NCBI GenBank assembly: GCA_003104935.1 | Contig: PQAE01000003.1 | Coordinates: 9,350-73,349, forward strand | Length of the DNA stretch: 64,000 bases | Source of the DNA: Parcubacteria group bacterium | GTDB taxonomy: Bacteria; Patescibacteriota; Patescibacteriia; UBA1558; GWA2-36-10 | Direction: 5' to 3' | In this document: piece by piece, positions 2,715 to 55,663 of the stretch | How the letters are laid out: each line of letters opens with the position of its first letter | Position numbering within the stretch: the first letter of the stretch is position 1 | The notes under the pieces: generated by a model | Seen by the model: only the letters and a program-made list of their open reading frames with translations | Databases searched by the model: none | What the model was told of the DNA's origin: nothing | Made by a program: the position numbers and the translations under genes

Positions 2715-3830
2715 TTAACCGGTCCGATAAATTTCTAAAATACTGCCTGCCATTTTGACCCAGGAATATTTCTCTATTTGTTTAAAGCCGGCTTGTTTTA
2801 GATCAAAGGCAATATTTTCCTGGCAAATTATCATCTCCATTTTTTCTAGAAGTGATTCTTCTCGCAGAGGATCAAAATACAAGGCGGCTGGCCCCAAAAT
2901 CTCTGACAGACAGCTGGACTGACTGGATAGGATCGGCGTGCCTAAGGACATCGCCTCCAGCGGCGGCAGTCCAAAGCCTTCATACAGGGACGGAAATACA
3001 TAAGCCCGAGCCTGTTGGTAGTAAGCGCCTAATAAATTATCCGGCACATAACCCACAAAAATAATATTATTTTTGTCCAACGGATGCGATTGCCTAGTCA
3101 GAATTTTCAGGCGCTCATAAAAATAATTCTTTTGACCGATGAGGATGAGGTAAAAATCCGGATGTTTGATTTTAAATTTTATAAAAACATCAATGAGAAA
3201 CTCCAGATTTTTGTGCGGATAAGCGTTGCCGACGTAAAGAAAAAAATTTTCCGGGAGAGAAATTTTCTCAACAAACGGTGAACCTAGTTTTGTAATACCT
3301 TCGTAAACCACCTTGATTTTGTCGGACTGAGCTGAGCTCATTTTAAAATGTTTTATCAGATCCTGCCGCCCAAATTCTGATACGGCTATAATCCGCCATG
3401 CCCTATGTACGGCGGACTTAATGATCCGGTTATAAAACCAATACTTAAAATTAAATACAAAGTTATTGCGGTGCGTGCTCGCCCGACGGCTGGGAAATTT
3501 GGTCATTATCAAATCGTGAATGGTCACTAGGAACTTACCGCGGTAAAAAATGGGCACATTAAAGTGCGGAAAATGAACTAAATCTGCCTGAAGACTATAT
3601 AAAATAAAGGGCATGACTATTTGTTCCTTGACCGTATACCAGCGACAATTGGCAATTTTAATCTGAAAATTGGCAGGTAACTGTGGTAGGTCGTCGGGAG
3701 CTTCTTTAAATATTAAAATATACTGGTTGGTTAAATCAATTTTAACCAACTCTTCCAATAATTTTTGGTTGTAGCGGCCCAAGCCACCCACGCGTGGTCC
3801 GTAAATCCGTAAATCAATGACTATTTTCAT
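2715..3830 (-). CDS. Glycosyltransferase family 1 (GT4-type)
   Basis: C-terminal EGFGLPPLEAMSLGTPIL motif (E-x7-E GT1 signature). Confidence 0.85.
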   Translation of the reverse strand: MKIVIDLRIYGPRVGGLGRYNQKLLEELVKIDLTNQYILIFKEAPDDLPQLPANFQIKIANCRWYTVKEQIVMPFILYSLQADLVHFPHFNVPIFYRGKFLVTIHDLIMTKFPSRRASTHRNNFVFNFKYWFYNRIIKSAVHRAWRIIAVSEFGRQDLIKHFKMSSAQSDKIKVVYEGITKLGSPFVEKISLPENFFLYVGNAYPHKNLEFLIDVFIKFKIKHPDFYLILIGQKNYFYERLKILTRQSHPLDKNNIIFVGYVPDNLLGAYYQQARAYVFPSLYEGFGLPPLEAMSLGTPILSSQSSCLSEILGPAALYFDPLREESLLEKMEMIICQENIAFDLKQAGFKQIEKYSWVKMAGSILEIYRTG

Positions 3831-7496: not shown

Positions 7497-8023
7497 GGCC
7501 TAAATTGAACAATAAGCCGAGTTCTGTATCCTCTGCCTACGGCAGAGGGCGATGATCATCTATCTAGGCCTAGAGTCGCCCCTAGGCTCAAACGACCTAC
7601 CCGCCCTGCACCTTATGGTACAGGGCCAATTTGGTCTTTCACCGGATAGAGTTTACCTCTTTCAGTCTGTCACCAGACTGACGGGTCCGCTAATTATCGG
7701 ACCTTTTCACCCTTATTTTAGTCCATTGCTGGACTAAAAAGGAATATTCTCTGTTGCACTTGTCCTGACCCAGCCATCACTGGCGAGCCGGTTGGCGTTA
7801 CCAATTATCCTTGCTTGTCCGCCTTTGGCGGATTTATGGTGCTCGGACTTTCCTCCCTGAACCACTCACTCCGTTCGGGTATCAGGGCGGCGCCCTCATA
7901 CCGGGTATTTAACGGCCAGCACTTCGACCAGCCGTGTACCCCAGAAAATTCAAGTTTACGGCCAGCCGTGTACCCGAGCGAAGCGAGTGGTTCACGGCGA
8001 TCATCTTGGTCAATTCAGACCTT
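7497..8023 (-). ncRNA. rnpB: RNase P RNA, bacterial type A, with an extended P3
   Basis: Minus strand contains GGGAGGAAAGUCCGAGCACC (P4 5' strand), ACAGAACUCGGCUUAUU (P4 3' strand) and UAAGGGUGAAAAGGUCCG (P10-12). A P2 pairing (GAACCACUCGCUUCG / CGAACGGAGUGAGUGGUUC) and a P1 pairing (GGUCUGAAUUGACC / GUUCAAUUUAGGCC) can be drawn. No ORF; GC-rich against AT-rich flanks. Ends are +/-10 nt. Confidence 0.85.
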
Positions 8024-20626: not shown

Positions 20627-20655
20627 TTGACAAAATATGGTATTTATGATATAAT
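20627..20655 (+). promoter_or_regulatory. Consensus sigma70-type promoter: TTGACA, 17-nt spacer, TATAAT
   Basis: ttgaca at 20627-20632, exactly 17 nt, tataat at 20650-20655. Confidence 0.6.
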
Positions 20656-20700: not shown

Positions 20701-20826
20701 ATGCACTGGTACTCTGATTCTACAGTATGGATGATTTTGGCCGGTTTCTTCTGCCTGGTGCACACCACATTGAAGTGCATCCGGCTGTGGGGCGGCCGGC
20801 ATAGAAGACAAATCAACCAGGCTTAG
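20701..20826 (+). CDS. Small hydrophobic 41-aa peptide (MHWYSDSTVWMILAGFFCLVHTTLKCIRLWGGRHRRQINQA)
   Basis: GGAGG Shine-Dalgarno 7 nt before the ATG; consensus promoter upstream; intrinsic terminator downstream; one TM-like segment then a basic tail. Below the 60-aa cut-off of the ORF track. Confidence 0.5.
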   Translation: MHWYSDSTVWMILAGFFCLVHTTLKCIRLWGGRHRRQINQA

Positions 20827-31874: not shown

Positions 31875-31948
31875 TCGGGGATCGTCTAGTGGTAGGACAG
31901 CGGCCTTTGGAGCCGTCAACCGGGGTTCGAATCCCTGTCCCCGAGCCA
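31875..31948 (+). tRNA. tRNA-Gln (anticodon UUG), CCA encoded
   Basis: Acceptor stem UCGGGGA/UCCCCGA with discriminator G and CCA; GGTTCGAATCC T-loop; anticodon loop CUUUGGA. Confidence 0.8.
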
Positions 31949-32017: not shown

Positions 32018-32719
32018 ATGAAACTTTCTAAAAGTCAAAATGGTTATGCTAACATAAGCGCTATTCTGGTAGCAGTTTTATTTGTGGCGATTATATTTAT
32101 TACTGCTGTTTATATAGATAATATATTATCCGCCACTAAAGACATCCATATAGTTAATCACAAAGGAGCTTTAATTGCGAAGAACAACCTAACTACATAT
32201 ACAGATGAGATTCTAGGTTATTCTTTTGAATATCCTGGTGATAAGTATGAGGTTTCATTGCCGGCGGGAGTTAGCACCTCGGGAGAATATGTGAATATTG
32301 CCTTATACGAAAAAAATGAAAAGAAACGTTATGCTATGAGATTTCTTGCTCACAAACCTTACGAAAAAAATTTAGAACTTGGAGCCTATCCTGGAGACGT
32401 AAATACTTTTTATAATTTTGGCGATATCGAGAGCTATATCTATGAAAATGGTGAATATAAAATAATATATGGCCCGCGTAAACTTAGTGTTAAAGTATCG
32501 GACGTAATAGAAAGTGATTTTGGTCAGATTATTGTTATTGACGGAATAAGTTTTAACGAACATGGAGCTGGCATTACAATACGCGAAGGCATAGGTCATG
32601 CCGCCTTAATCAGATCAAATAATGATAAATATTGGGATATTAATGTAGATGTCAATGAAGAAGCAATGAGCTATCAGGAATTTATTACTATTTTAAAAAC
32701 CATAAACCGGAAAATTTAA
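32018..32719 (+). CDS. Hypothetical membrane-anchored secreted protein
   Basis: 233-aa ORF with an N-terminal TM anchor, the only plus-strand gene in this stretch. Confidence 0.5.
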   Translation: MKLSKSQNGYANISAILVAVLFVAIIFITAVYIDNILSATKDIHIVNHKGALIAKNNLTTYTDEILGYSFEYPGDKYEVSLPAGVSTSGEYVNIALYEKNEKKRYAMRFLAHKPYEKNLELGAYPGDVNTFYNFGDIESYIYENGEYKIIYGPRKLSVKVSDVIESDFGQIIVIDGISFNEHGAGITIREGIGHAALIRSNNDKYWDINVDVNEEAMSYQEFITILKTINRKI

Positions 32720-40042: not shown

Positions 40043-40088
40043 GCCGCGGCGCGCCATTCAAGAAAAGTATGGTTAGGCGCGCCGCGGC
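40043..40088 (+). terminator. Perfect 13-bp all-GC inverted repeat (GCCGCGGCGCGCC, 20-nt loop, GGCGCGCCGCGGC) followed by a T-rich tract
   Basis: Lies 11 nt after the stop of the 38740-40032 gene and marks the left edge of the high-GC insert. Confidence 0.45.
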
Positions 40089-40190
40089 TTTAATATTGAC
40101 AAAACTAAATAAATCTGCTAATTTATAGTGTTTGCAATGACCTGGTTGCGACCAGATCAAAATCGTTCCTCACAGAAAGGATATTACTTC

Positions 40191-40691
40191 ATGGGCGCGC
40201 TGTTGAGCAAAAAAGCTGCCAGCATGGCCATTTCCATCATCTCGCCGAGCGTGATCCAGCTGCTCCGCCAATCGATAATTCTTGGCGGAATCTTCAAGCG
40301 AGGACAGCTGCACGTGGTCGTCTTGGATCCCACGTCGAGATGGGAACAAGGGGCAGAGATCATCGACGCTGTCCTGGCCGAGTACACCTTCAACGAGGAC
40401 AACCGGCCACTGGAAGGACCCTATCGCGACATCGCGTTGGGCAAAGCCATGGTGTCCTGGCGCACTGGCCAACCGTCCGGCTGGGTCGCCCAGTTCGCGC
40501 CTCATCTTCTGCTTCCCGGCGACTCCAAGCACCGTGGCTCCTGGGTCACGGACGGTATCGTGACCACCGCCAGCGGCGTGCAAGGCTACTTCGACGAGAT
40601 GGTCGCCAAGTGGCTCGGCGCGGCCTGCAGTGCCCTGAGTCGGCATCAGATGGAAGCCATCATCCTGGACAAGGAACGCGACACAGTCTGA
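40191..40691 (+). CDS. High-GC (about 60%) cargo gene; possibly GlcG/HbpS-like (DUF336) haem-binding family protein
   Basis: AAAGGA RBS 9 nt upstream. Codon third positions are GC-rich, unlike the neighbours. The motif pattern (VVVLDPTS...DIALGKAMVS...PGDSKHRGSWVTDGIVTTASGVQG...) loosely fits DUF336 but this was not searched. All six frames are open here, a signature of high-GC DNA. Confidence 0.55.
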   Translation: MGALLSKKAASMAISIISPSVIQLLRQSIILGGIFKRGQLHVVVLDPTSRWEQGAEIIDAVLAEYTFNEDNRPLEGPYRDIALGKAMVSWRTGQPSGWVAQFAPHLLLPGDSKHRGSWVTDGIVTTASGVQGYFDEMVAKWLGAACSALSRHQMEAIILDKERDTV

Positions 40692-47135: not shown

Positions 47136-47164
47136 TTGACAAAATATCAAATATATGCTATTAT
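47136..47164 (+). promoter_or_regulatory. Promoter (TTGACA, 17-nt spacer, TATTAT) for the high-GC gene at 47252
   Basis: Host-like AT-rich promoter sequence directly upstream of a foreign-composition ORF. Confidence 0.5.
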
Positions 47165-47251
47165 TATATATTCATCGTTCATAGAAACAACTAAATTCCT
47201 GCGAATTCCGTAACTTGGTAACCAAATTGTCCAGCCCTAAGGAGGCTTGCA

Positions 47252-48028
47252 ATGTCCAGCAAGAGTGCGTATAAGCCGGCCGAAATCCGGTCGATCAATT
47301 CCTGGGCCAACCGCAGTATGCGGATGAGCCAAAAGAGAATGACACTCATCGGCATTTTCGGCCTGATCGCACTGCTACTCGGCATGTTCTGCCGGGTGGC
47401 AATCAGTGAAGGAGCTACTCTCCCCGATTCTCTGGAACTGAGGGCTCTGCAGTTGCAGGCCGCTGGAAGAGTTGTCGCGGCAGACAGTCTGCGAAAGGTC
47501 TTTACCGCACAAATCGTTTTGGCGGAGCGCCAAAAAGCAATCCAGGATTCCCTCACTGCCCTTCAGAAAGCCGCTCAGCTGGAGCTGTACCGCCGGCATC
47601 TGGACGCCAAGGTCAAGCTCTGGTCGTCCTGGGATGCCAAAGTCACTCCTCTGCCGATCGATTCGGTGTGGGTCTGGGCCGGCTGCGACTTCGACAAGCT
47701 CAATTGGTTGGCCGCTCGGTATCATATTCAGTACGACATCAAGTCGTCACTGAACGACAATGCGACGCGCATGGCCAATGAGATGAAAGCACGCAAGCAA
47801 TTGCGCACTGAAGTTAGCCGCCAGCTGAGAACCCAGTTGACCGGACTCACCTCGCAGGTGAACAAACTCGAACAGCGCGTGGACGCCTGCGAACAGAACA
47901 TCGCGGCCATTCGAAAAGCCGTGGTGAAAAACGGCTTTGACATCGGAGCCGCCCTCTCCGTCCTGGAGCAGACGGCCGGTGTGGCCTGTGTCAACGCCGC
48001 GCGCGGAAAAGCGCGACAAGATAAGTAG
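47252..48028 (+). CDS. High-GC (about 57%) cargo gene: N-terminally anchored coiled-coil membrane protein of unknown function
   Basis: AAGGAGG RBS 7 nt upstream; one TM (LIGIFGLIALLLGMFCRVAI) then a heptad-rich region; strong terminator downstream; all six frames open, a GC artefact. Confidence 0.6.
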   Translation: MSSKSAYKPAEIRSINSWANRSMRMSQKRMTLIGIFGLIALLLGMFCRVAISEGATLPDSLELRALQLQAAGRVVAADSLRKVFTAQIVLAERQKAIQDSLTALQKAAQLELYRRHLDAKVKLWSSWDAKVTPLPIDSVWVWAGCDFDKLNWLAARYHIQYDIKSSLNDNATRMANEMKARKQLRTEVSRQLRTQLTGLTSQVNKLEQRVDACEQNIAAIRKAVVKNGFDIGAALSVLEQTAGVACVNAARGKARQDK

Positions 48029-48043
48029 TAAGAGGTAACAAAA

Positions 48044-48095
48044 GCCGCCCCGACAAATCGCGTTAGCGATGAAGTCGGGGCGGCTTCTTCAATTT
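48044..48095. terminator. Intrinsic terminator (GCCGCCCCGAC, 19-nt loop, GUCGGGGCGGC, then UUCUUCAAUUU) between convergent genes
   Basis: 11-bp GC stem followed by a T-rich run. Confidence 0.6.
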
Positions 48096-48116: not shown

Positions 48117-50351
48117 TTAATTTTTTTCCAGCCGCTTATTTATTTGCTCCAGTATTTCCTTATAACCGGCTTCCAATATTCTGACTCTTTCTCCCTCACT
48201 ATTCTCCAAAAAGGGCAACATACCGCGCGCACCCTCTATATCCTCTTTTAGTTTACTGAGGTAGGCCAGATCGGCGGATTGGATTTTATCCATATTAAAA
48301 TGAAAGGAAGGATCACCGCGGTTTATACTTTCAACTGCCAGTGCTACTGGTTCCACTTTTACCTGTTCGGTATCCGGAGCCACATCCTTGACGGTTTCCA
48401 GATCTATAACGGCCGGTTGCTCTGTTGCTGGTTTGATTTGGTCACTGGTATCAATGATCTTCGGCTCATCATCAATCACTGTTTTATTGGGAATTTCCCA
48501 GGGAGATTTTTGACCGGTGGCGGCAACATCGCTTTCCGGGGTATTATATTTTACCTCTGAACCTTCCAGGGTTTTATGCTCCGGCGCCCAGGGGGACTCG
48601 GTGGACTTGGGTACAAATGTTTCTTCTGGCTGAACCTTGTCCGGCAAAGGTATTTGAGACTCGGATGGGTGTGGGTCAACAGCTTGTTGAAAATATCCCG
48701 CCTTAAAGGCCTGTTGCATTTGTTTAGAGTCCTGAATCGCGAAATCTTGGCGTTCATCACCGTTGGTATCCACAAAATAGCGATCGCTACGCATCGGCCA
48801 GGAACCGGTATGGTATTTTTGGATCAAAGCATATTGACCTTCAGGGCCGAGTTGGACCGGACGCCAAATATTAGCTTCACCGCCTTTTATGTCATTAAAG
48901 CTCTTGACAACATTGTCATCCAAGGATTTTGCTAGGTCATCAATGGAACCTTGCTCATGGTAATTTACGCTTTCAGCATGATGTTTAAGCTGATGATAAA
49001 AAACACTGGTTTTATCCGGACTGAAATTGTGCTCCCGGCCATAATCATTGACGAAATGATGCAGGTTACGGTCGCTTCTGGTTTCCAGAACACTATGAAA
49101 TAAATCGTTTACTTTGCCTTCGGCTTTAGCCGCCTCAAACAACTGAGCATTATAGGATGCGCCGCGTTCGCTCAAAAATTCGTCCAACCCCGCCTCGGGA
49201 TGACCGGCTACTGCCCCTGTTTCCACAGGATGGGAAATGATGCTGTGCTCACTCATAAATTTATCCAGATCTGCCGGAGACATTTCCAGAGAACGACCGT
49301 CTGGCATAACTACGTTTGGCTGGCTATCACGGTCCCAATCATAAACCTTATAAACTCCGTCTTTGCCATGAATTTCCATATACTGATTGCCGGTTTGCTG
49401 GTCTAGATGAACTCCATGCTCCACTTCCGGATTAAATTTAGCATCCGCAAAAATCTTTTCCATGTTATTATCAGGCAGATGACCGGCTTTGATGCCGGAG
49501 GAGGCCTCAAAACTCAGGTGCGGATGTCCGTCCTTGAAATCAACTACCACCTTATCCCCGCTATGTACCAAGTCGGCCAGATTGCCGCCCTGTTCCTTAT
49601 TGAGTTGAGCGACTAAATTAGCAGTCTGATTTTCGGCAAATTTATCCAGAGCCACGTGATCATTGATATCACCGTGATAGCCGAACTTCTCTGGATTATG
49701 CTCTATCATATCATGGGTAGAACGCCAAATAGAATCACTGCCCTGGACTTTACTGGAATCAATAACGTCTTCTAAATGAGTAACCGAAGCTTGACTGGCC
49801 TGAGCATGTTCCATAGTTGGAATCCAGTTAGCTTCCGGACTCGTCGGCTGACCAGCAACCTTGTCCGGATCAGCCGTAAAAGGAAATCTTTCTGTTGCCG
49901 AAGTTTTATCAGGATGAAATTCTTGTTCCGGACTAAGTTCACCGTGCTGACCGTCGGCGTCGTGATGCCTACTCATGTTCATAAATAAACCTCCGGCGGC
50001 TCCCAGCACCGCTCCTCCTATAGCCATACCCAATTTTAATTTTTTAGAATCCGAAATTATTTTTTTGGTGTCTTTTTCCATCTGTAGCCCCAAAGATTTG
50101 GTGTGTTCACTGATACCTTTAAGCAGATCAGCGGCATTTCTTTTGTTCCGATTGTTTTCAAAGTTCTGAAAATTATAGAGAAAATTTTCCGCCCGGCTCT
50201 TGAGCATAGGGTCGGCCTCGAAAGTCCCGAGTTTTAATTGGCTCTGCACCAGCAGGACGTTTTTCTTGACTTCGGCTAAACTCTTGGCGGGTATTTCTAA
50301 ATCTGTGATAGCGGCTTCGGCCTTATCAATAATCTCCTCTATCTTCTTCAT
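48117..50351 (-). CDS. Giant coiled-coil/glycine-zipper membrane protein B (about 744 aa; unknown function)
   Basis: Start chosen at the Met that gives an ATGA overlap with the upstream stop (plus-strand tcat at 50348-50351); the ORF-track alternative start is 50402. N-terminal coiled coil, GxxxGxxxG transmembrane glycine zipper (LGMAIGGAVLGAAGGLF), then a roughly 600-aa His/Asp/Glu-rich soluble region. Confidence 0.6.
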   Translation of the reverse strand: MKKIEEIIDKAEAAITDLEIPAKSLAEVKKNVLLVQSQLKLGTFEADPMLKSRAENFLYNFQNFENNRNKRNAADLLKGISEHTKSLGLQMEKDTKKIISDSKKLKLGMAIGGAVLGAAGGLFMNMSRHHDADGQHGELSPEQEFHPDKTSATERFPFTADPDKVAGQPTSPEANWIPTMEHAQASQASVTHLEDVIDSSKVQGSDSIWRSTHDMIEHNPEKFGYHGDINDHVALDKFAENQTANLVAQLNKEQGGNLADLVHSGDKVVVDFKDGHPHLSFEASSGIKAGHLPDNNMEKIFADAKFNPEVEHGVHLDQQTGNQYMEIHGKDGVYKVYDWDRDSQPNVVMPDGRSLEMSPADLDKFMSEHSIISHPVETGAVAGHPEAGLDEFLSERGASYNAQLFEAAKAEGKVNDLFHSVLETRSDRNLHHFVNDYGREHNFSPDKTSVFYHQLKHHAESVNYHEQGSIDDLAKSLDDNVVKSFNDIKGGEANIWRPVQLGPEGQYALIQKYHTGSWPMRSDRYFVDTNGDERQDFAIQDSKQMQQAFKAGYFQQAVDPHPSESQIPLPDKVQPEETFVPKSTESPWAPEHKTLEGSEVKYNTPESDVAATGQKSPWEIPNKTVIDDEPKIIDTSDQIKPATEQPAVIDLETVKDVAPDTEQVKVEPVALAVESINRGDPSFHFNMDKIQSADLAYLSKLKEDIEGARGMLPFLENSEGERVRILEAGYKEILEQINKRLEKN

Positions 50352-52429
50352 GGCCTTAACCTCCTTGACCCGCTCAACACCCTCAGCGGCCATGTAACCC
50401 ATACCAGCGCCGACAAGGCGCCGGTAGCCACCCTCACTAATCCTACCTGTTGCACCGCAAAAGCCATGGTCGCACCAAAACCGATACTCAAAGCAGTGTG
50501 CTTATGCCTAGTTATTATATTATCATCTTGTTCCGACTCAGCGCCCTTAAATCCTCCTTGGGCCAGATTATACCTGGCAATTAATTTAAAGTAGCCAGGT
50601 TTTTCCTTTTTTATTCGGTCCAAACTATCCTTGGCCGCAATCTCGTTTCGTTCATGCTGAGCTAAGATCTCCGCCACCATCACAGCGGCGCTACGCACCT
50701 GATCCGGAGAGGCCTTGGCATATTCTGGGTCGGCGCTAATCATGTTATAGGCCCGATAATAAAATTCTTGAGCCACCTCACCCAATAACTCGGTCTGCTT
50801 TAAAACATCAGCGCCTTTTGATTGTTCAGACTGATATTGTCCTAAAAGCTCCCGGGCTTGCTCATTGGTCTGGTCGCGCAAAACATTGCTCAGAGTAGCG
50901 CTGATTTTACCGCGTACCTTATCTTTATTTTTGAAAAGCTCCTGCAACACCCTATCTCTTTCCTTGGCCACTTCCTTGATCTTATCTCCGGCCTTGGCGG
51001 TCTGTCGCTTTTCTAATAAATATTTGTATAATCTACTTACTGACGCCCCACCTAGAGCACCACCAGCCGCGGCCACGCCACCGATAACCAAAGAAGGAGC
51101 GATCACCGGTAAAAGAGCAGCGGTGCCGAGCAATGTCGCGGCGGTACCGCCGGCAATAGCGCCCATCTTCAGAGCATTTTTACCAAAACCTTTAGCCAAA
51201 CCCTTCCAGGAATCCTGTCCGCTAAGCGCCAAGTTTACCTCTGCTTCAATACTAGACTCTAGGGCCTGCTGGATGGTCTCAGCCGCTTCCCTAACCTGCT
51301 CCTCGGTCATCAGATCTTCCATATTCTTGGCGGCCAGGATCTCCTTTATTTTGCCGGCATAGAAATTATTTATCTCTTCCTTAACTGTCTCCAGTTTAGC
51401 CTGGAGCTCCGCCAGATTGGTTTCTGACGATATGCCGACTGTGTCTTCGTCCACGGTTTCCGGTCCGGCCGGCATCTTTTTCTTTTTTTTCTTTTCTTTT
51501 TTCGGCGCTTTATCATCCGCTTCCGCCAGACTCAGTTCCTGGCGAGCGTGATTATAATTTGATAAAAGGTGTTCTAAAAAAACTGCCTCGGCTTCGGAAA
51601 AATTCTTCATTATTTCTACGGAACTGACGTCCACAAAACCTAGTTCTCTTTTTATTTTCTCCAAATCCGGAGCAACAGATTTCGGCTCTTTAATGGGTAA
51701 AACCGGTTTCTTTTTTTCTTTTTCTCGTTTTTTTTCTGCCCGGCTACCAGCTTTATCGCCTTCGTCTTCGGGATTTATGTTTTCGGCGGTTCTCGGAGGA
51801 TTGGTTGGCGGTGGCGGAACTGTTGGGCCGGCGGTTGACCGACGAGATGGTGTTTCGGTATCAACGTCAAGCGGTTCTTCCTTTTTCCGATCTTTATCCG
51901 CTACCGACTCCGTTGTTGATTCTTTGGCCGGAGACACTACTCCACTCTCCTCAAAATCAACATAGACAACCTCCGACGTTTTTAATGTCGGCGCCAATTC
52001 ACCGGATTTTTCCGCAGTCCCCCGGCCAGCAACGCGCTGAAAGGAATTTTTTACGCTGGCTAAAGCTCCGCGCGCTTTTTCCGCATATCTTTTGGCGGCC
52101 GACCGCACAGGCTCGCAACCACTAGAACTAGCCGCCTCCCGGGCAGTAGCATCAATTTTTCTGCTTAGCTCCTCTACTACTTCAACATGACTCATCCGGC
52201 CACCAACATCGCGACTTCCCGGCTCACTTGTTTCTCCTAATAATTGCTCCACTTTTGCCGCGCCAGCAGTGCCGGTAGCCGCTTCCGCCCGATAGGCGGC
52301 ATCATTAAAATCACCGGTCTTGACCTGTAGACTATCTGCCAGGCCTTCCAGTAAGGCTACTTCTGCTTCCACCGAGATTTCTGGTCTGACCTCCGGGATT
52401 TCCGGCGTGCTGGTTTTTTTCTCGTCCAT
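50348..52429 (-). CDS. Giant coiled-coil/glycine-zipper membrane protein A (693 aa; unknown function)
   Basis: Acidic coiled-coil N-terminus; Pro- and Lys-rich low-complexity tracts (KKEKKKKKK); glycine-zipper TM hairpin (GAIAGGTAATLLGTAALL...IGGVAAAGGALGGA); a second hydrophobic segment near the C-terminus. Confidence 0.6.
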   Translation of the reverse strand: MDEKKTSTPEIPEVRPEISVEAEVALLEGLADSLQVKTGDFNDAAYRAEAATGTAGAAKVEQLLGETSEPGSRDVGGRMSHVEVVEELSRKIDATAREAASSSGCEPVRSAAKRYAEKARGALASVKNSFQRVAGRGTAEKSGELAPTLKTSEVVYVDFEESGVVSPAKESTTESVADKDRKKEEPLDVDTETPSRRSTAGPTVPPPPTNPPRTAENINPEDEGDKAGSRAEKKREKEKKKPVLPIKEPKSVAPDLEKIKRELGFVDVSSVEIMKNFSEAEAVFLEHLLSNYNHARQELSLAEADDKAPKKEKKKKKKMPAGPETVDEDTVGISSETNLAELQAKLETVKEEINNFYAGKIKEILAAKNMEDLMTEEQVREAAETIQQALESSIEAEVNLALSGQDSWKGLAKGFGKNALKMGAIAGGTAATLLGTAALLPVIAPSLVIGGVAAAGGALGGASVSRLYKYLLEKRQTAKAGDKIKEVAKERDRVLQELFKNKDKVRGKISATLSNVLRDQTNEQARELLGQYQSEQSKGADVLKQTELLGEVAQEFYYRAYNMISADPEYAKASPDQVRSAAVMVAEILAQHERNEIAAKDSLDRIKKEKPGYFKLIARYNLAQGGFKGAESEQDDNIITRHKHTALSIGFGATMAFAVQQVGLVRVATGALSALVWVTWPLRVLSGSRRLRP

Positions 52430-52433
52430 ATGC

Positions 52434-52613
52434 TTAAAACTGCGACTTAATTTTTTCTAATATTTTATCCATGGCCTCATTTTCCTGACTGCGATGGGCC
52501 TCTAACTTTTGCCTGGTATAATTATCCAACTTAAATATAATCTTATCTAACTCACTCATCAGATTTTTATGAAGCGCCTGGATGTCGGCTAATATTTTCT
52601 CTTTATCGGACAT
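52434..52613 (-). CDS. Small 59-aa coiled-coil protein (MSDKEKILADIQALHKNLMSELDKIIFKLDNYTRQKLEAHRSQENEAMDKILEKIKSQF)
   Basis: Fills the 52430-52615 gap exactly: starts 3 nt after the upstream stop and ends 5 nt before the next start. Not in the ORF track because it is under 60 aa. Confidence 0.4.
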   Translation of the reverse strand: MSDKEKILADIQALHKNLMSELDKIIFKLDNYTRQKLEAHRSQENEAMDKILEKIKSQF

Positions 52614-52615
52614 AA

Positions 52616-52954
52616 CTATTCTGCCTTTTTTAAATCCATCAATTTAGCGGCGCTACTTAAAAACTCTTCGCTAAATTGGGCTAAGGTTTTTTTAACCTTA
52701 GCTTCAAAATCCGGAATTTCTTTATTAAAAAACTCCAAAAGCATTTTCTGATCCGGAGTTTCATTTTCCCTCATGATTTGCTCAAATTTTTTCAGGCCGT
52801 CCTCGTCCAATTCGCCTAGGGCCATGATGCCCAGACGCTGTTCTACTTCCGCCCTCAATTTCTGCAGATAATCCTTTTTAAATTCCTCCGGCAGAGCATC
52901 AATGCCGGCCTTGGTTAATAGTTCTGCCACATAGGTGGCAATAACATCCTCCAT
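52616..52954 (-). CDS. Small acidic helical protein (112 aa; unknown)
   Basis: ORF in an operon position between the SPFH gene and the giant genes. Confidence 0.5.
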   Translation of the reverse strand: MEDVIATYVAELLTKAGIDALPEEFKKDYLQKLRAEVEQRLGIMALGELDEDGLKKFEQIMRENETPDQKMLLEFFNKEIPDFEAKVKKTLAQFSEEFLSSAAKLMDLKKAE

Positions 52955-53058: not shown

Positions 53059-54711
53059 TCAGGTTCTGCTTCCGATGTACTTGCTGATCCCATCCAGGAA
53101 TCCGGCCGGGAAGGCGACGGTTCCGCCGCTCTCAGCCAAACGCAGGGCGGTCAGTAGACGCATGGCTTCGGCCTTGTCGCCGAGATCCAGACTCTGGTAG
53201 ATGGCTTCTACCTGCCGAACGATGAAATCACCTTCGCCCTTTCCTTGCTCAGCCCGAGCCCGAGCGTACTTGACGGCCGTCTGGATTTTGGTCTCCGCAA
53301 CACGAAGCGCCTTCTGGGCCGCCTCGATGTCGGGTGACTGATTGACGTCCATGATCTGGAAGCGGACCAGGCGCACGCCGGTATGGCGACGGAGATCCTC
53401 AGCCAGATACTGAGGGAAGGTCTCGTAGGTACGCCCTTCCCTGCTCAGATCGACCATGTCGATTTCGGTCAGCAAACTCTGCTGGCGCTCCTCAACTAAC
53501 TGATGGAAGTTGGTGAGACGCGGGTCTTCTGCCGGACCTCCTTCCGGAGCGACGTAAGGTTTGGACGTGATCTCTGTCAGCAACTCCTTGCGGACTTGCT
53601 GTTCGATCTGCGTCTCCCGCTTACGGTTGATGTCGGCCACATTCCCCAAGTAGGGATTTTTGACCTTGGCTTCGTTGTTGGTGAGCTGACGGGTGTATTC
53701 CGTCAGTGCTCCTTCGACATAGCGGGCGATCAGTCCTTGGAACTTGGCATCGTCTGAACGGTCTTCGTCGGCCAGGCGCAAGAAAGGTCTGGGATCGTGA
53801 CGCATGACGGTCAGCTTGTAGGCGATCTGAATCGGCGGTCCAGGTTCGGTGCCGACAGTCGCCTTACCGTTTTCATCTACATCCAGCAGTTCCGGACGGG
53901 TTGGGATGAACTCGGTCTTCAGTGCCGTGCCCTTGGGACCGTTGATTTCCAGCTCCTCGCAGAAGAGCTCGGCGATGTCAAAACCGGGAAACCAACTGGG
54001 AATCAGGATCAGGTTCAAACCCTCATCCATCCAGCGCCTATTGAGCATCAGCCGATTCCACAGCCAGCTGGGCTTGAGGCCCATCTCTCTGCGGATCATC
54101 TGCTCAAAGTAGCGCTCTTCCTCGTTGAGTGCCTCGGACTCCTTCTCATTGGAGTCGGTGTACCGGATCTTGGACAGATCGGGCAAACCATAGCGAGGCT
54201 TCTTGAAGAAGATGACTACCCAACGCTCACGAAGATTAGGGTTGTAGAAACAACTCATCAAGTAACCGACACCGGCTCCCATGATTCCGGGAAGCCATGA
54301 CCAGGCTGAAGTGTGCCAGATCCACCACAACAAAGAGCCGTGGAAAACCAGACATCCAATCAGTCCCGGCCAATGCAAACCGGCCTTGTTCAGATCTTTG
54401 CCGGTGAGAGCGTCAGTCCTAGCGTTCCAGGACTTCGGTACCAGAACGGAAAAGAGCCGCCATAGTCCGAGGCCAGAAACGACCAGTGTCAACAACCACT
54501 GCCACCAAGAAAGATGCCTAAGCACCCCACTGATGTAGATCAGACCGATGATCAACGGGACCAGAATGGTCTGTCCCCAATTGATCTTTTTCGCCTTGAC
54601 CAGATTGCCAGTGGTGATGAAGCCGATGAGCAGAAGTAGCGCGAGTACCGGCCAGTGGTAGTAGTGATTCCAGTACCACATGACCTTATCCCAAAAGAGT
54701 TCGAACGACAT
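53059..54711 (-). CDS. SPFH/band-7 (flotillin/stomatin-like) protein with Trp-rich multi-TM N-terminus; high GC (about 57%)
   Basis: SPFH core (IPSWFPGFDIAELF...IQIAYKLTVMRHDPRPFLRLADE...FQGLIARYVEGALTEY) followed by a coiled coil; AGGAGG SD. Overlapping ORFs in all frames are GC artefacts. Confidence 0.65.
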   Translation of the reverse strand: MSFELFWDKVMWYWNHYYHWPVLALLLLIGFITTGNLVKAKKINWGQTILVPLIIGLIYISGVLRHLSWWQWLLTLVVSGLGLWRLFSVLVPKSWNARTDALTGKDLNKAGLHWPGLIGCLVFHGSLLWWIWHTSAWSWLPGIMGAGVGYLMSCFYNPNLRERWVVIFFKKPRYGLPDLSKIRYTDSNEKESEALNEEERYFEQMIRREMGLKPSWLWNRLMLNRRWMDEGLNLILIPSWFPGFDIAELFCEELEINGPKGTALKTEFIPTRPELLDVDENGKATVGTEPGPPIQIAYKLTVMRHDPRPFLRLADEDRSDDAKFQGLIARYVEGALTEYTRQLTNNEAKVKNPYLGNVADINRKRETQIEQQVRKELLTEITSKPYVAPEGGPAEDPRLTNFHQLVEERQQSLLTEIDMVDLSREGRTYETFPQYLAEDLRRHTGVRLVRFQIMDVNQSPDIEAAQKALRVAETKIQTAVKYARARAEQGKGEGDFIVRQVEAIYQSLDLGDKAEAMRLLTALRLAESGGTVAFPAGFLDGISKYIGSRT

Positions 54712-54906: not shown

Positions 54907-55560
54907 TTAGGCCTTTCCCCTGCTTTCGGACCGATGCGCAAAATATGAATAGACAATAGTGCTCAGGATCAGAGCCATTGCTAAAATAAAAGTATAGACA
55001 GTCCAGCTGTCGGGGTAATATGGCGTTAGTATAAATAGCAATCCGGCGATTATAAACATCTTGGCGCCAAATTTATGGGTCTTGGCCCAGACATAGGGAC
55101 TAGATATGGTCCAGGGCGTACGGATGCCAACAAACCAATTGGGTTTTATCTGGGGCAGATACAAGCCCATAAATATAAACATCAGACCGATCAAAGTCGT
55201 CACTGTCCAGCCGATGGAAATATTATAGCCGACATTTACCAGGTTTGATATTATATAAATTACGGATAATAAAGATAAAATGCACAATTGAATGACCAGG
55301 TAAGGAAATTTAAATTCTTTATAGCCCTTTGCCAGAGGATCGATATGCGGCAGAAACTTGAACAACAGCCACATAAAAATTAACAATGACGGAAAAAAGA
55401 TAACCTGAAAATTTTTACTGCTCCAGCCGTTTGCCTCACCGTTTATTCCCCAGTGGGTGACGACCTTGGCCGGCAAAAGCGGGTAAAAATAAAACGAGCT
55501 ACCGACTGCTGCTAACAAAATTAGCAGGATGATGAGATTGACAATTTTTTCTTTGTTCAT
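54907..55560 (-). CDS. SdpI/YhfL-family membrane protein (DUF1648-SdpI; immunity-protein-like)
   Basis: N-terminal DUF1648-like segment (THWGINGEANGW) then polytopic SdpI-like TM helices; start placed at MNKEKIV. Confidence 0.55.
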   Translation of the reverse strand: MNKEKIVNLIILLILLAAVGSSFYFYPLLPAKVVTHWGINGEANGWSSKNFQVIFFPSLLIFMWLLFKFLPHIDPLAKGYKEFKFPYLVIQLCILSLLSVIYIISNLVNVGYNISIGWTVTTLIGLMFIFMGLYLPQIKPNWFVGIRTPWTISSPYVWAKTHKFGAKMFIIAGLLFILTPYYPDSWTVYTFILAMALILSTIVYSYFAHRSESRGKA

Positions 55561-55663
55561 ATATTTTTTCTTACGGCTCCTAGCTGATAGCCTATAGTAC
55601 ATAATTTATAATCACTAAAAATCCTGACCATAAACAATAGGCCATCAGCTATGGGCCGACTAA

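Follow-up and report, generated by a model that had tools for sequence, protein, structure and literature searches.

Why does one short gene in an AT-rich Parcubacteria genome carry so much more GC than the genes around it, and is such a gene foreign, artefactual or native? The gene in question, C3F02_01115, occupies positions 47252 to 48028 of a 64,000-nucleotide stretch (the window) taken from contig PQAE01000003.1, positions 9,350 to 73,349, of the Parcubacteria group assembly GCA_003104935.1. This open reading frame (ORF) encodes exactly the hypothetical protein annotated as C3F02_01115 in a Parcubacteria group metagenome-assembled genome (MAG). The first-pass annotation of this DNA placed the ORF at about 57% GC, and the figure holds: it is 57.1% GC, with 0.58, 0.43 and 0.70 at the first, second and third codon positions (GC1, GC2 and GC3), against 44.0% for the window, or a z score of 3.3 relative to all 777-nt windows of the stretch. 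Only one other region of the window, at 53.0 to 54.7 kb, reaches a comparable GC. Per-gene GC3 is otherwise narrow, with a median of 0.475 and almost every gene between 0.39 and 0.54, and the long genes include three high outliers, at 40128/40191 to 40691, 47252 to 48028, and 53059 to 54711. No paralog of C3F02_01115 was found within the window.

From its composition the gene had been described as high-GC cargo, with a small possibility of engineered or chimeric sequence. Comparison with related genomes supports neither description. C3F02_01115 is native to a Parcubacteria/Patescibacteria subclade, inherited vertically and restricted to that lineage, and its GC excess is a maintained, gene-specific synonymous bias common to a small class of genes defined by their promoters. 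The gene and its signals are as follows.

47136-47164, + strand: sigma-70-type promoter, with -35 TTGACA at 47136-47141, a 17-nt spacer and -10 TATTAT at 47159-47164
47165-47251, + strand: leader, a predicted 5' untranslated region (UTR) of ~80 nt, with an EcoRI site at 47203 and AAGGAGG at 47239-47245
47252-48028, + strand: coding sequence C3F02_01115, 258 aa, ATG start, predicted exported or anchored all-alpha product
48042-48086, both strands: bidirectional intrinsic terminator, with a 13-bp perfect GC-rich stem, a 19-nt loop and an inner 5-bp stem

A native gene with conserved surroundings

Relatives of the protein are few. A word-indexed search of 5.8 billion proteins returned one homolog, P0002, at 42% identity, and HMMER, run exhaustively on 1.84 billion cluster representatives, added P0003, P0004, P0005, P0006, P0007, P0012 and P0016. 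Re-searching the 5.8-billion-protein database with the family profile yielded P0012 as the sole addition, and the family comprises about nine members among the 1.84 billion cluster representatives. P0010 is a fragment of a family member. Four large HMMER matches (P0008, P0011, P0013 and P0015) were rejected, their scores being sums of many weak Ig-like, BspA, VCBS or low-complexity repeats, and the 5,409-aa P0009 was rejected as likewise repeat-summed, although it was not itself inspected. Scanning GTDB species representatives with the family profile gave no relative, and the same profile found a single, frameshifted copy in metagenomes (L006, Ga0209542_10223192). In that copy (603-1500) the conserved promoter is present and the ORF is broken by a stop codon and frame shifts, which could reflect a pseudogene or sequencing error. 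P0010, an N-terminal half, and P0005, a C-terminal half, likewise resemble the halves of an interrupted family member.

Homologs were found in eight other independent assemblies (Logan SRR22388048, SRR33452769/64, SRR29748427 and ERR14788038; JGI 3300064051, 3300004210 and Ga0209542; ENA ERZ27293400; and NCBI GCA_043817345.1). Gene order in L001, L003/L004, L005, L007 and L010 repeats that of the window: FtsE-FtsX, a PpiC-like gene, DivIC, CorA, Dus and then the C3F02_01115 homolog, which converges on a giant ORF. L008 carries the same sequence as L007 on a shorter contig, and L008 and L009 show only the convergent ORF. In L002, a Patescibacteria MAG of 31% GC, an ATPase_2/DUF234 gene takes the place of the left flank seen elsewhere, yet the family member still converges on a 1740-aa ORF preceded by DUF5663. 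The patchy presence expected of a cargo gene was thus not seen, the gene being syntenic in L001, L003/4, L005, L007 and L010 and beside the giant in L002. Across all 15 genome pairs, family proteins share 25 to 54% identity, whereas CorA and Dus share 67 to 86%.

The GC excess recurs with the gene. For example, GC3 of the family member compared with its neighbours is 0.70 versus 0.39-0.54 in the window, 0.79 versus 0.40-0.54 in L001, 0.74 versus 0.32-0.52 in L003, 0.76 versus 0.31-0.40 in L005, 0.59 versus 0.25-0.41 in L010, 0.43 versus 0.20-0.23 in L007, 0.43 versus 0.31-0.33 in L009, and 0.39 versus 0.17-0.24 in L002. The excess, about 0.1 to 0.45, was present in 7/7 other loci measured, in host genomes of 31 to 45% GC, and the value scales with the host, from 0.39 in the 31% GC genome to 0.79 in one of 44.5% GC. 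Synonymous sites are saturated even in Dus, where identical codons at identical residues occur about as often as independent choice predicts. Any signal inherited from a donor would therefore have decayed, and the GC3 bias is actively maintained in each lineage. Averaged over eight loci, the promoter and leader have a GC of 0.25-0.28, the ORF reaches 0.50-0.55 and the value drops to 0.22 directly beyond the hairpin, which limits the GC step to the coding sequence and the terminator stem. Orthologs at ordinary GC in sister genomes had been named as the observation that would count against a cargo gene; syntenic orthologs were indeed found, but their GC is not ordinary, GC3 being raised in every one measured.

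The signals around the ORF are those of an independent, strongly marked transcription unit, as first described. The promoter (TTGACA, a 17-nt spacer and TATTAT) is where it had been placed, matches 11/12 consensus positions and is the top-scoring site of the region; its AT-rich spacer ends in TGC (47156-47158), an extended -10. The 37-nt promoter core is nearly identical in the window and L001, where the remaining intergenic sequence is unconserved. The extended -10 architecture is also found 5' of family members in L001, L002, L003/4, L005, L006, L007/8 and L010, and L009 has TTGACA-17-TAAAAT without the TG. The strong Shine-Dalgarno (SD) sequence, AAGGAGG at 47239-47245, was confirmed at a spacing of 6 nt to the ATG, and a strong SD at the correct spacing is present in all sister loci. 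Leaders are 69 to 92 nt long in most sister loci and 184 nt in L002, counted from the proximal promoter. The window leader is unstructured (folding z = +0.7), no stable or conserved structure emerged from folding the 5' UTRs of the loci except for a 5' stem-loop in L005, and an Rfam search of the locus gave no match at E<=1.

Downstream, the terminator hairpin was correctly recognised in the first-pass annotation, although its stem is a perfect 13 bp (arms 48042-48054 and 48074-48086) and not 11 bp. Read on the + strand it folds with a free energy of -37.9 kcal/mol (z = -7.3); on the - strand it is equally stable (-37.0 kcal/mol, z = -6.6) and runs into UUUUGUU. The hairpin is therefore read as a terminator in both directions, shared with the convergent giant gene, which ends at 48117. 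A GC-rich hairpin occupies the equivalent position in every sister locus, with a different sequence each time. Strong promoter, ribosome-binding and terminator signals are thus kept across loci, as judged by consensus matches only. The L002 family member has two tandem consensus promoters, at 3022 and 3153, and its upstream region (3022-3372) contains a perfect 16-bp inverted repeat, GATTATACAGCATTGA...TCAATGCTGTATAATC; the repeat and tandem promoters could represent an operator or added regulation.

These comparisons bear directly on where the gene came from. A horizontally acquired, un-ameliorated cargo gene from a high-GC donor would explain the atypical GC (z = 3.3; GC3 0.70 versus a median of 0.475), the gene's own promoter and terminator, and the absence of a known family, but it is highly improbable given syntenic homologs in eight other independent assemblies, GC3 values that follow host genome GC, and saturated synonymous sites that would have erased a donor signal. 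The only flanking repeat is the terminator stem, there are no mobility genes and the neighbours are housekeeping genes; no relatives of the family were found in viral contigs or GenBank phages (plasmids were not searched), and no high-GC donor homolog appeared among the 1.84 billion representatives. A chimeric assembly or an engineered insertion, joined at about 47190 and 48040, would fit the sharp GC steps at both gene ends and the restriction sites that had been taken as hints of engineering. The EcoRI site in the leader is real, but EcoRI sites are under-represented, with 5 in the window against ~19 expected from base composition, and the AscI/SacII sites of the hairpin first noted at 40043 (40044-40087) form the 12-bp GC stem (40044-40055/40076-40087) of the preceding gene's natural terminator. 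Because gene order, promoter core and GC steps, including the same junctions, are repeated in independent assemblies from different samples, assemblers and pipelines, a chimera at 47190/48040 is excluded for practical purposes. A function at the RNA level, as a structured RNA or an antisense gene with the ORF incidental, is hardly tenable: GC-rich sequence in an AT-rich genome and antisense ORFs of 88 to 121 aa overlapping the gene would suit it, but chance antisense ORFs are expected in GC-rich DNA, Rfam is silent, and protein motifs, invariant residues, in-frame indels, synonymous sites saturated at conserved residues, and a strong, correctly spaced SD at all loci identify a real protein-coding gene.

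Codon bias in a promoter-defined class

The strict promoter pattern TTGACA-N14-TGnTAnnnT occurs 4 times in the 64 kb, compared with 0.03 expected. Three of these sites lie directly 5' of the three long GC3 outliers, and the fourth (20627) lies 5' of a 41-aa ORF. The strict promoter also precedes the C3F02_01115 orthologs in sister loci and, in L001 and L004, the ~530-aa gene of the neighbouring operon described below. All four consensus-promoter genes of the window are monocistronic, lineage-specific ORFans with GC3-rich codons. The other three are listed here.

20701-20826, + strand: ORF for a 41-aa hydrophobic peptide, with promoter 20627-20655, TGGAGG SD and GC3 0.69
40191-40691, + strand: 166-aa ORFan, GC 61%, GC3 0.77, with consensus promoter 40096-40124
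53059-54711, - strand: C3F02_01140, 550-aa polytopic membrane protein gene, GC3 0.70, with a 12/12 consensus promoter at 54831-54803

The 41-aa ORF, which had no Rfam or Pfam match, is a predicted, unannotated small membrane protein of the GC3-rich class. The 166-aa ORFan has no counterpart in the fetched sister loci and, unlike C3F02_01115, may be variable.

Codon choice in the class departs from that of the window in a consistent direction. The ratio NNC/(NNC+NNU) is 0.61 in C3F02_01115 versus 0.33 in 31 background genes of the window (p = 2e-5); the other three genes with consensus promoters have values of 0.67, 0.80 and 0.77. The giant gene is at background, and the DUF5663 and 59-aa genes beside it are slightly lower (0.18). 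In sister genomes the NNC preference of the family member was significant in 6/6 tested (p 3e-5 to 9e-16). A preference for NNG over NNA is clear in L001, L003 and L005 (39 to 45% GC), marginal in the window and L010, and not seen in L007 or L002. The leucine codon TTA is missing from family members save those of L003 and L002, CTG and CTC being the dominant leucine codons. A tRNA with G34 pairs with C in Watson-Crick geometry and with U by wobble, and translational selection is classically recognised by a universal preference for NNC.

A predicted exported helical protein

The protein was first described as one transmembrane (TM) segment followed by heptad-rich helices, with no recognisable family, and this outline is upheld by the sequence comparisons and a structural model. 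Its features are the following.

47252-47338, + strand: basic N-terminal tail, residues 1-29, charge +7/-1
47339-47392, + strand: single hydrophobic segment, residues 30-47 (MTLIGIFGLIALLLGMFC), followed by SEGA/TLPDSL (the slash marks a candidate cleavage site)
47621-47722, + strand: Trp-rich knot, residues 124-157, between two long helices
47936-47968, + strand: C-terminal motif FDIGAALSVLE, residues 229-239

All full-length members have one N-terminal hydrophobic segment preceded by a charged region and no second TM-like window; in the window protein the hydrophobic run is 18 uncharged residues. By the positive-inside rule, the +7/-1 tail would be cytoplasmic and the topology N-in/C-out. 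The tail motif KPAEIRSxxSWxxRxxRMSxxK is common to the window protein and P0004 and is better conserved than the rest of the protein, which suggests that the N-terminus is retained as a type II anchor in the closer subgroup. Tails are longer in the closer members; the distant members P0006, P0007, P0012 and P0016 begin with short signal peptides of the classical kind, with AXA-type sites (ANA, AKA, FAA and IAA), and the candidate site of the window protein, SEGA/T, has Glu at position -3.

Conserved blocks in the family alignment are LPDSL; AAGK..AADSL; W..V.PL.ID.VW.W....K..WLA.RY; R..LR.EVSRQL; and FDI.AALSVLE. The segment WVWAGCDFDKLNW, singled out in the first-pass annotation, is present at residues 140-152, inside the Trp-rich knot, and D137, W142, K149 and R156 are invariant in all nine aligned family sequences. 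An AlphaFold2 model built from the nine-sequence alignment is all-alpha, with a predicted local distance difference test score (pLDDT) of 79.4 and a predicted template modelling score (pTM) of 0.41. It contains a hydrophobic-segment helix (27-52), a short helix (59-70), two long helices of about 60 residues (74-131 and 167-226) and two terminal helices. Two short helices between the long ones, at 136-143 and 147-156, hold the invariant residues and 5/6 tryptophans.

Family and fold searches point to an undescribed protein family with no Pfam model. Every match in Pfam, NCBIfam, PHROG and PADLOC was below cut-off, and Foldseek comparison of the model gave no match, with best E values of 8.5 in the PDB and 0.32 in BFVD. 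Sub-threshold matches to Baculo_PEP_C, PspA, IcmG/DotF, a tail needle and LeoB were rejected as compositional, and the only PDB sequences reached by the family profile, the trimeric coiled coils of HA2, P22 gp26 and an HR1 mimic (E 5e-5 to 0.05, 16 to 26 bits), were rejected as heptad composition. The all-alpha protein has no SPFH/Band_7 (PF01145) match even at E<=10. A Braun-type lipobox was also sought: GMFC is not a lipobox, Cys47 is unconserved in the family, and the LPP match has E = 0.51.

The giant-protein module and the possible role of the gene

C3F02_01115 had been said to converge on the operon of a giant protein and perhaps to be linked to it. The genes of that operon in the window are these, and the 550-aa gene C3F02_01140 lies on their far side.

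48117-52429, - strand: giant membrane-protein gene, convergent to C3F02_01115, read as 761-aa and 693-aa ORFs with a 55-nt overlap
52434-52613, - strand: 59-aa gene of the giant-gene operon, upstream of the giant
52616-52954, - strand: DUF5663 gene (42.7 bits versus a cut-off of 23.7)

The giant is a single ORF of 1397 to 2124 aa in every sister locus that holds the entire gene, which places a frameshift near 50400 (overlap 50348-50402) in the window. The shift may stem from misassembly, mark a pseudogene or be programmed. In L001, L003/L004 and L005 the giant is preceded in its operon by a 59-66 aa gene, DUF5663 and a ~530-aa gene, and in L002 and L011 DUF5663 and the giant are present with no separate small gene called. 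L011, recovered from GTDB representatives with DUF5663 as bait, has Fpg, a 503-aa gene (GC3 0.61 versus 0.25-0.36), DUF5663 and the giant, and its contig ends before the position of C3F02_01115. The 550-aa protein is probably a divergent SPFH protein, judging from its profile matches. It is 45% identical to its L001 ortholog, compared with 85 to 93% for housekeeping neighbours, and its family, as rare as that of C3F02_01115, numbers only 3 among 5.8 billion proteins. These loci strengthen the suspected tie to the giant operon: the convergent pair is seen again in all 8 other loci, even in L002 with its changed left flank (in L008 and L009 only the convergent ORF is visible), and the SPFH-like gene of ~530 aa recurs in L001, L003/L004 and L005. 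The literature held no papers on DUF5663 and nothing specific on giant/SPFH modules or codon bias in bacteria of the Candidate Phyla Radiation (CPR).

The explanation that we prefer, and that taken as a whole we hold a little above even chance, combines a native gene, an expression-linked selected codon bias and a product that acts as an abundant, surface-exposed partner of a giant/SPFH-like envelope module. The gene would be transcribed alone from its near-consensus extended -10 promoter, through an unstructured leader of ~80 nt with a strong SD, and transcription would stop at the hairpin shared with the convergent giant gene. The universal choice of NNC over NNU, with NNG over NNA and GC-rich amino acids added in less AT-rich genomes, would most probably reflect selection tied to high expression, acting on translation efficiency or accuracy, on mRNA stability, or on both. 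The single hydrophobic segment would insert the protein N-in/C-out, probably as a type II anchor in the window subgroup and probably as a cleaved signal peptide in distant members. Outside the cell would stand an all-alpha domain of ~200 residues whose two ~60-residue helices are joined by the invariant Trp-rich knot, a putative functional site. Since the gene keeps its tail-to-tail position with a giant operon, on whose far side lies an SPFH-like gene just as GC3-rich and fast-evolving, its most likely role would be that of an abundant structural or scaffolding partner of the envelope module, surface exposed and under diversifying or co-evolutionary pressure.

Several observations weigh against this explanation. 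Ribosomal protein L27 (in L001, L003 and L005), the one gene in the loci that belongs to the classical highly expressed set, has NNC ratios of 0.15-0.35 and GC3 of 0.34-0.44, equal to background; the bias is therefore not a generic mark of highly expressed genes in these genomes. Raised GC1 and GC2, and NNG in some genomes, mean that a nucleotide-level force such as biased gene conversion fits as well as tRNA-based selection, and C3F02_01115 is among the fastest-evolving genes of its region. Very high expression is predicted from consensus signals only, and the hydrophobic segment may be either a signal anchor or the h-region of a long signal peptide. Band_7/SPFH is the top Pfam match of the 550-aa protein and two orthologs, but below threshold (15.8 to 20.8 bits versus 23.6), with the same match region in 2/3; the model of the 550-aa protein has a pLDDT of 55, and its fold search was uninformative. 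Finally, a functional link to the giant module is suggested by conserved adjacency only, in genes that converge and are not co-transcribed.

Two other explanations draw on the same evidence. If the locus were a recombination hot spot, with allelic exchange in a surface protein under diversifying selection, repeated GC-biased gene conversion could lift GC at every codon position and account for the fast divergence, and the strong promoter would be incidental. C3F02_01115 and the 550-aa gene lead the region both in rate of evolution and in GC, GC1 and GC2 rise along with GC3, four or five genomes show an enrichment of codons ending in G as well as C, and across bacteria recombination is positively related to gene GC independently of codon selection (Lassalle et al. 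2015, PMC4450053). But the GC step tracks the edges of the ORF and terminator in 8 genomes, with promoters and leaders at 25 to 38% GC, and the equally fast giant gene between two GC3-rich genes stays at background GC3 (0.31-0.48). The most AT-rich genomes are enriched for NNC only and not NNG, and the one-to-one match with consensus promoters, which includes the 41-aa and 166-aa genes, is not predicted by conversion, an explanation we regard as unlikely. The gene had also been suggested as a regulator or immunity partner. In this view a small exported immunity protein, antitoxin or regulator would neutralise or keep in check a giant effector with toxic or adhesive action. Adjacency kept even where the other flank changes, and fast evolution of both genes compatible with an arms race or co-evolution, would be expected of such a pair. 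Nothing in the analysis spoke specifically for it, however, and we consider it quite improbable: searches of the giant gene gave no domain of a toxin, enzyme or secretion system, PADLOC and NCBIfam gave no immunity matches, and a long coiled-coil ectodomain would be more usual in a structural protein. An immunity gene normally follows its toxin gene in the same transcript, whereas these two genes converge from separate promoters.

Comparison with known systems places the preferred explanation in context. Like codon-biased, highly expressed bacterial genes, C3F02_01115 has a near-consensus promoter, a strong SD, its own terminator, an NNC preference and a bias restricted to the coding sequence. 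It differs in that L27 does not share the bias and that NNG, GC1 and GC2 are also raised, and the four class genes are lineage-specific ORFans, not translation or housekeeping genes. Strong codon selection linked to growth rate would not be expected of CPR bacteria. With genes shaped by GC-biased conversion (PMC4450053) the locus shares heterogeneous GC3 within the genome, associated with fast-evolving, plausibly recombining genes, but its GC boundaries coincide with the ORF, the fast giant neighbour is unaffected and the bias tracks promoter class.

Analogies to proteins of similar build are looser. As in SPFH-accompanying (HflK/HflC-type) or Lpp-type coiled coils, there is a predicted N-terminal anchor, long helices and an SPFH-like neighbour, an analogy only, because the protein differs from HflK/HflC and Lpp in having no SPFH domain, lipobox or significant sequence or fold similarity. 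The trimeric coiled coils of influenza HA2, P22 gp26 and coronavirus HR1 also combine long helices with a connecting segment, and a PHROG tail-needle match is weak; unlike HA2, the anchor is N-terminal, giving the opposite topology, there is no fusion peptide, and there are no phage relatives. The best Pfam matches are PspA/IM30 and Baculo_PEP_C. Residues 159-241 align weakly to PspA/IM30 (PF04012) at 16.8 bits versus a cut-off of 33.9, and the topology predicted here puts the domain outside the cell, unlike the cytoplasmic PspA. The helical alignment to Baculo_PEP_C is similarly weak (22 versus 38). An exported coiled-coil protein with codon bias is in itself a familiar sort of protein. What is modestly surprising is the conserved coupling of consensus promoters to GC3-rich ORFans in reduced, AT-rich CPR genomes, together with the bracket around the giant.

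A bolder proposal, which we offer tentatively and think unlikely to hold in full, is that the lineage keeps a "high-output" class of monocistronic ORFans, each with a near-perfect extended -10 promoter, a strong SD, a terminator of its own and codons recoded to high GC3, and that C3F02_01115 and the SPFH-like protein bracket the giant and serve it stoichiometrically, forming an undescribed cell-surface apparatus. If this were true, the apparatus could be a host-contact structure of an episymbiotic CPR cell, with the Trp-rich tip as a contact or insertion element, and the GC3 recoding would point to a selective force, acting on mRNA or on translation, not anticipated for bacteria that grow slowly and have reduced genomes. 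The native status of the gene in itself removes a false lead, showing that GC-based island calling can misfire in CPR genomes, and gene order now ties a small uncharacterised family to a DUF5663/giant/SPFH-like envelope module. The association of promoter with GC3, kept in genomes of 31 to 45% GC and past synonymous saturation, also provides a clean natural test of what favours GC at synonymous sites in bacteria, a debated question, with expression-linked selection set against biased gene conversion.

Other features of the window were recorded in passing. An SdpI/YfhL-family membrane protein gene (54907-55602, - strand) adjoins the module, and a 937-aa surface protein with dockerin, EF-hand and fn3 repeats is encoded at 56613-59426 (- strand), its repeats expanded relative to a 433-aa counterpart in L001. 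A bacterial RNase P class A RNA was identified at 7502-7898 (- strand, 179 bits). The sole low-GC3 outlier of the window, a 233-aa gene at 32018-32719 (+ strand; GC 33%, GC3 0.25), lies directly 3' of tRNA-Gln (31875-31948) and is a more conventional candidate for horizontal acquisition than the high-GC genes.

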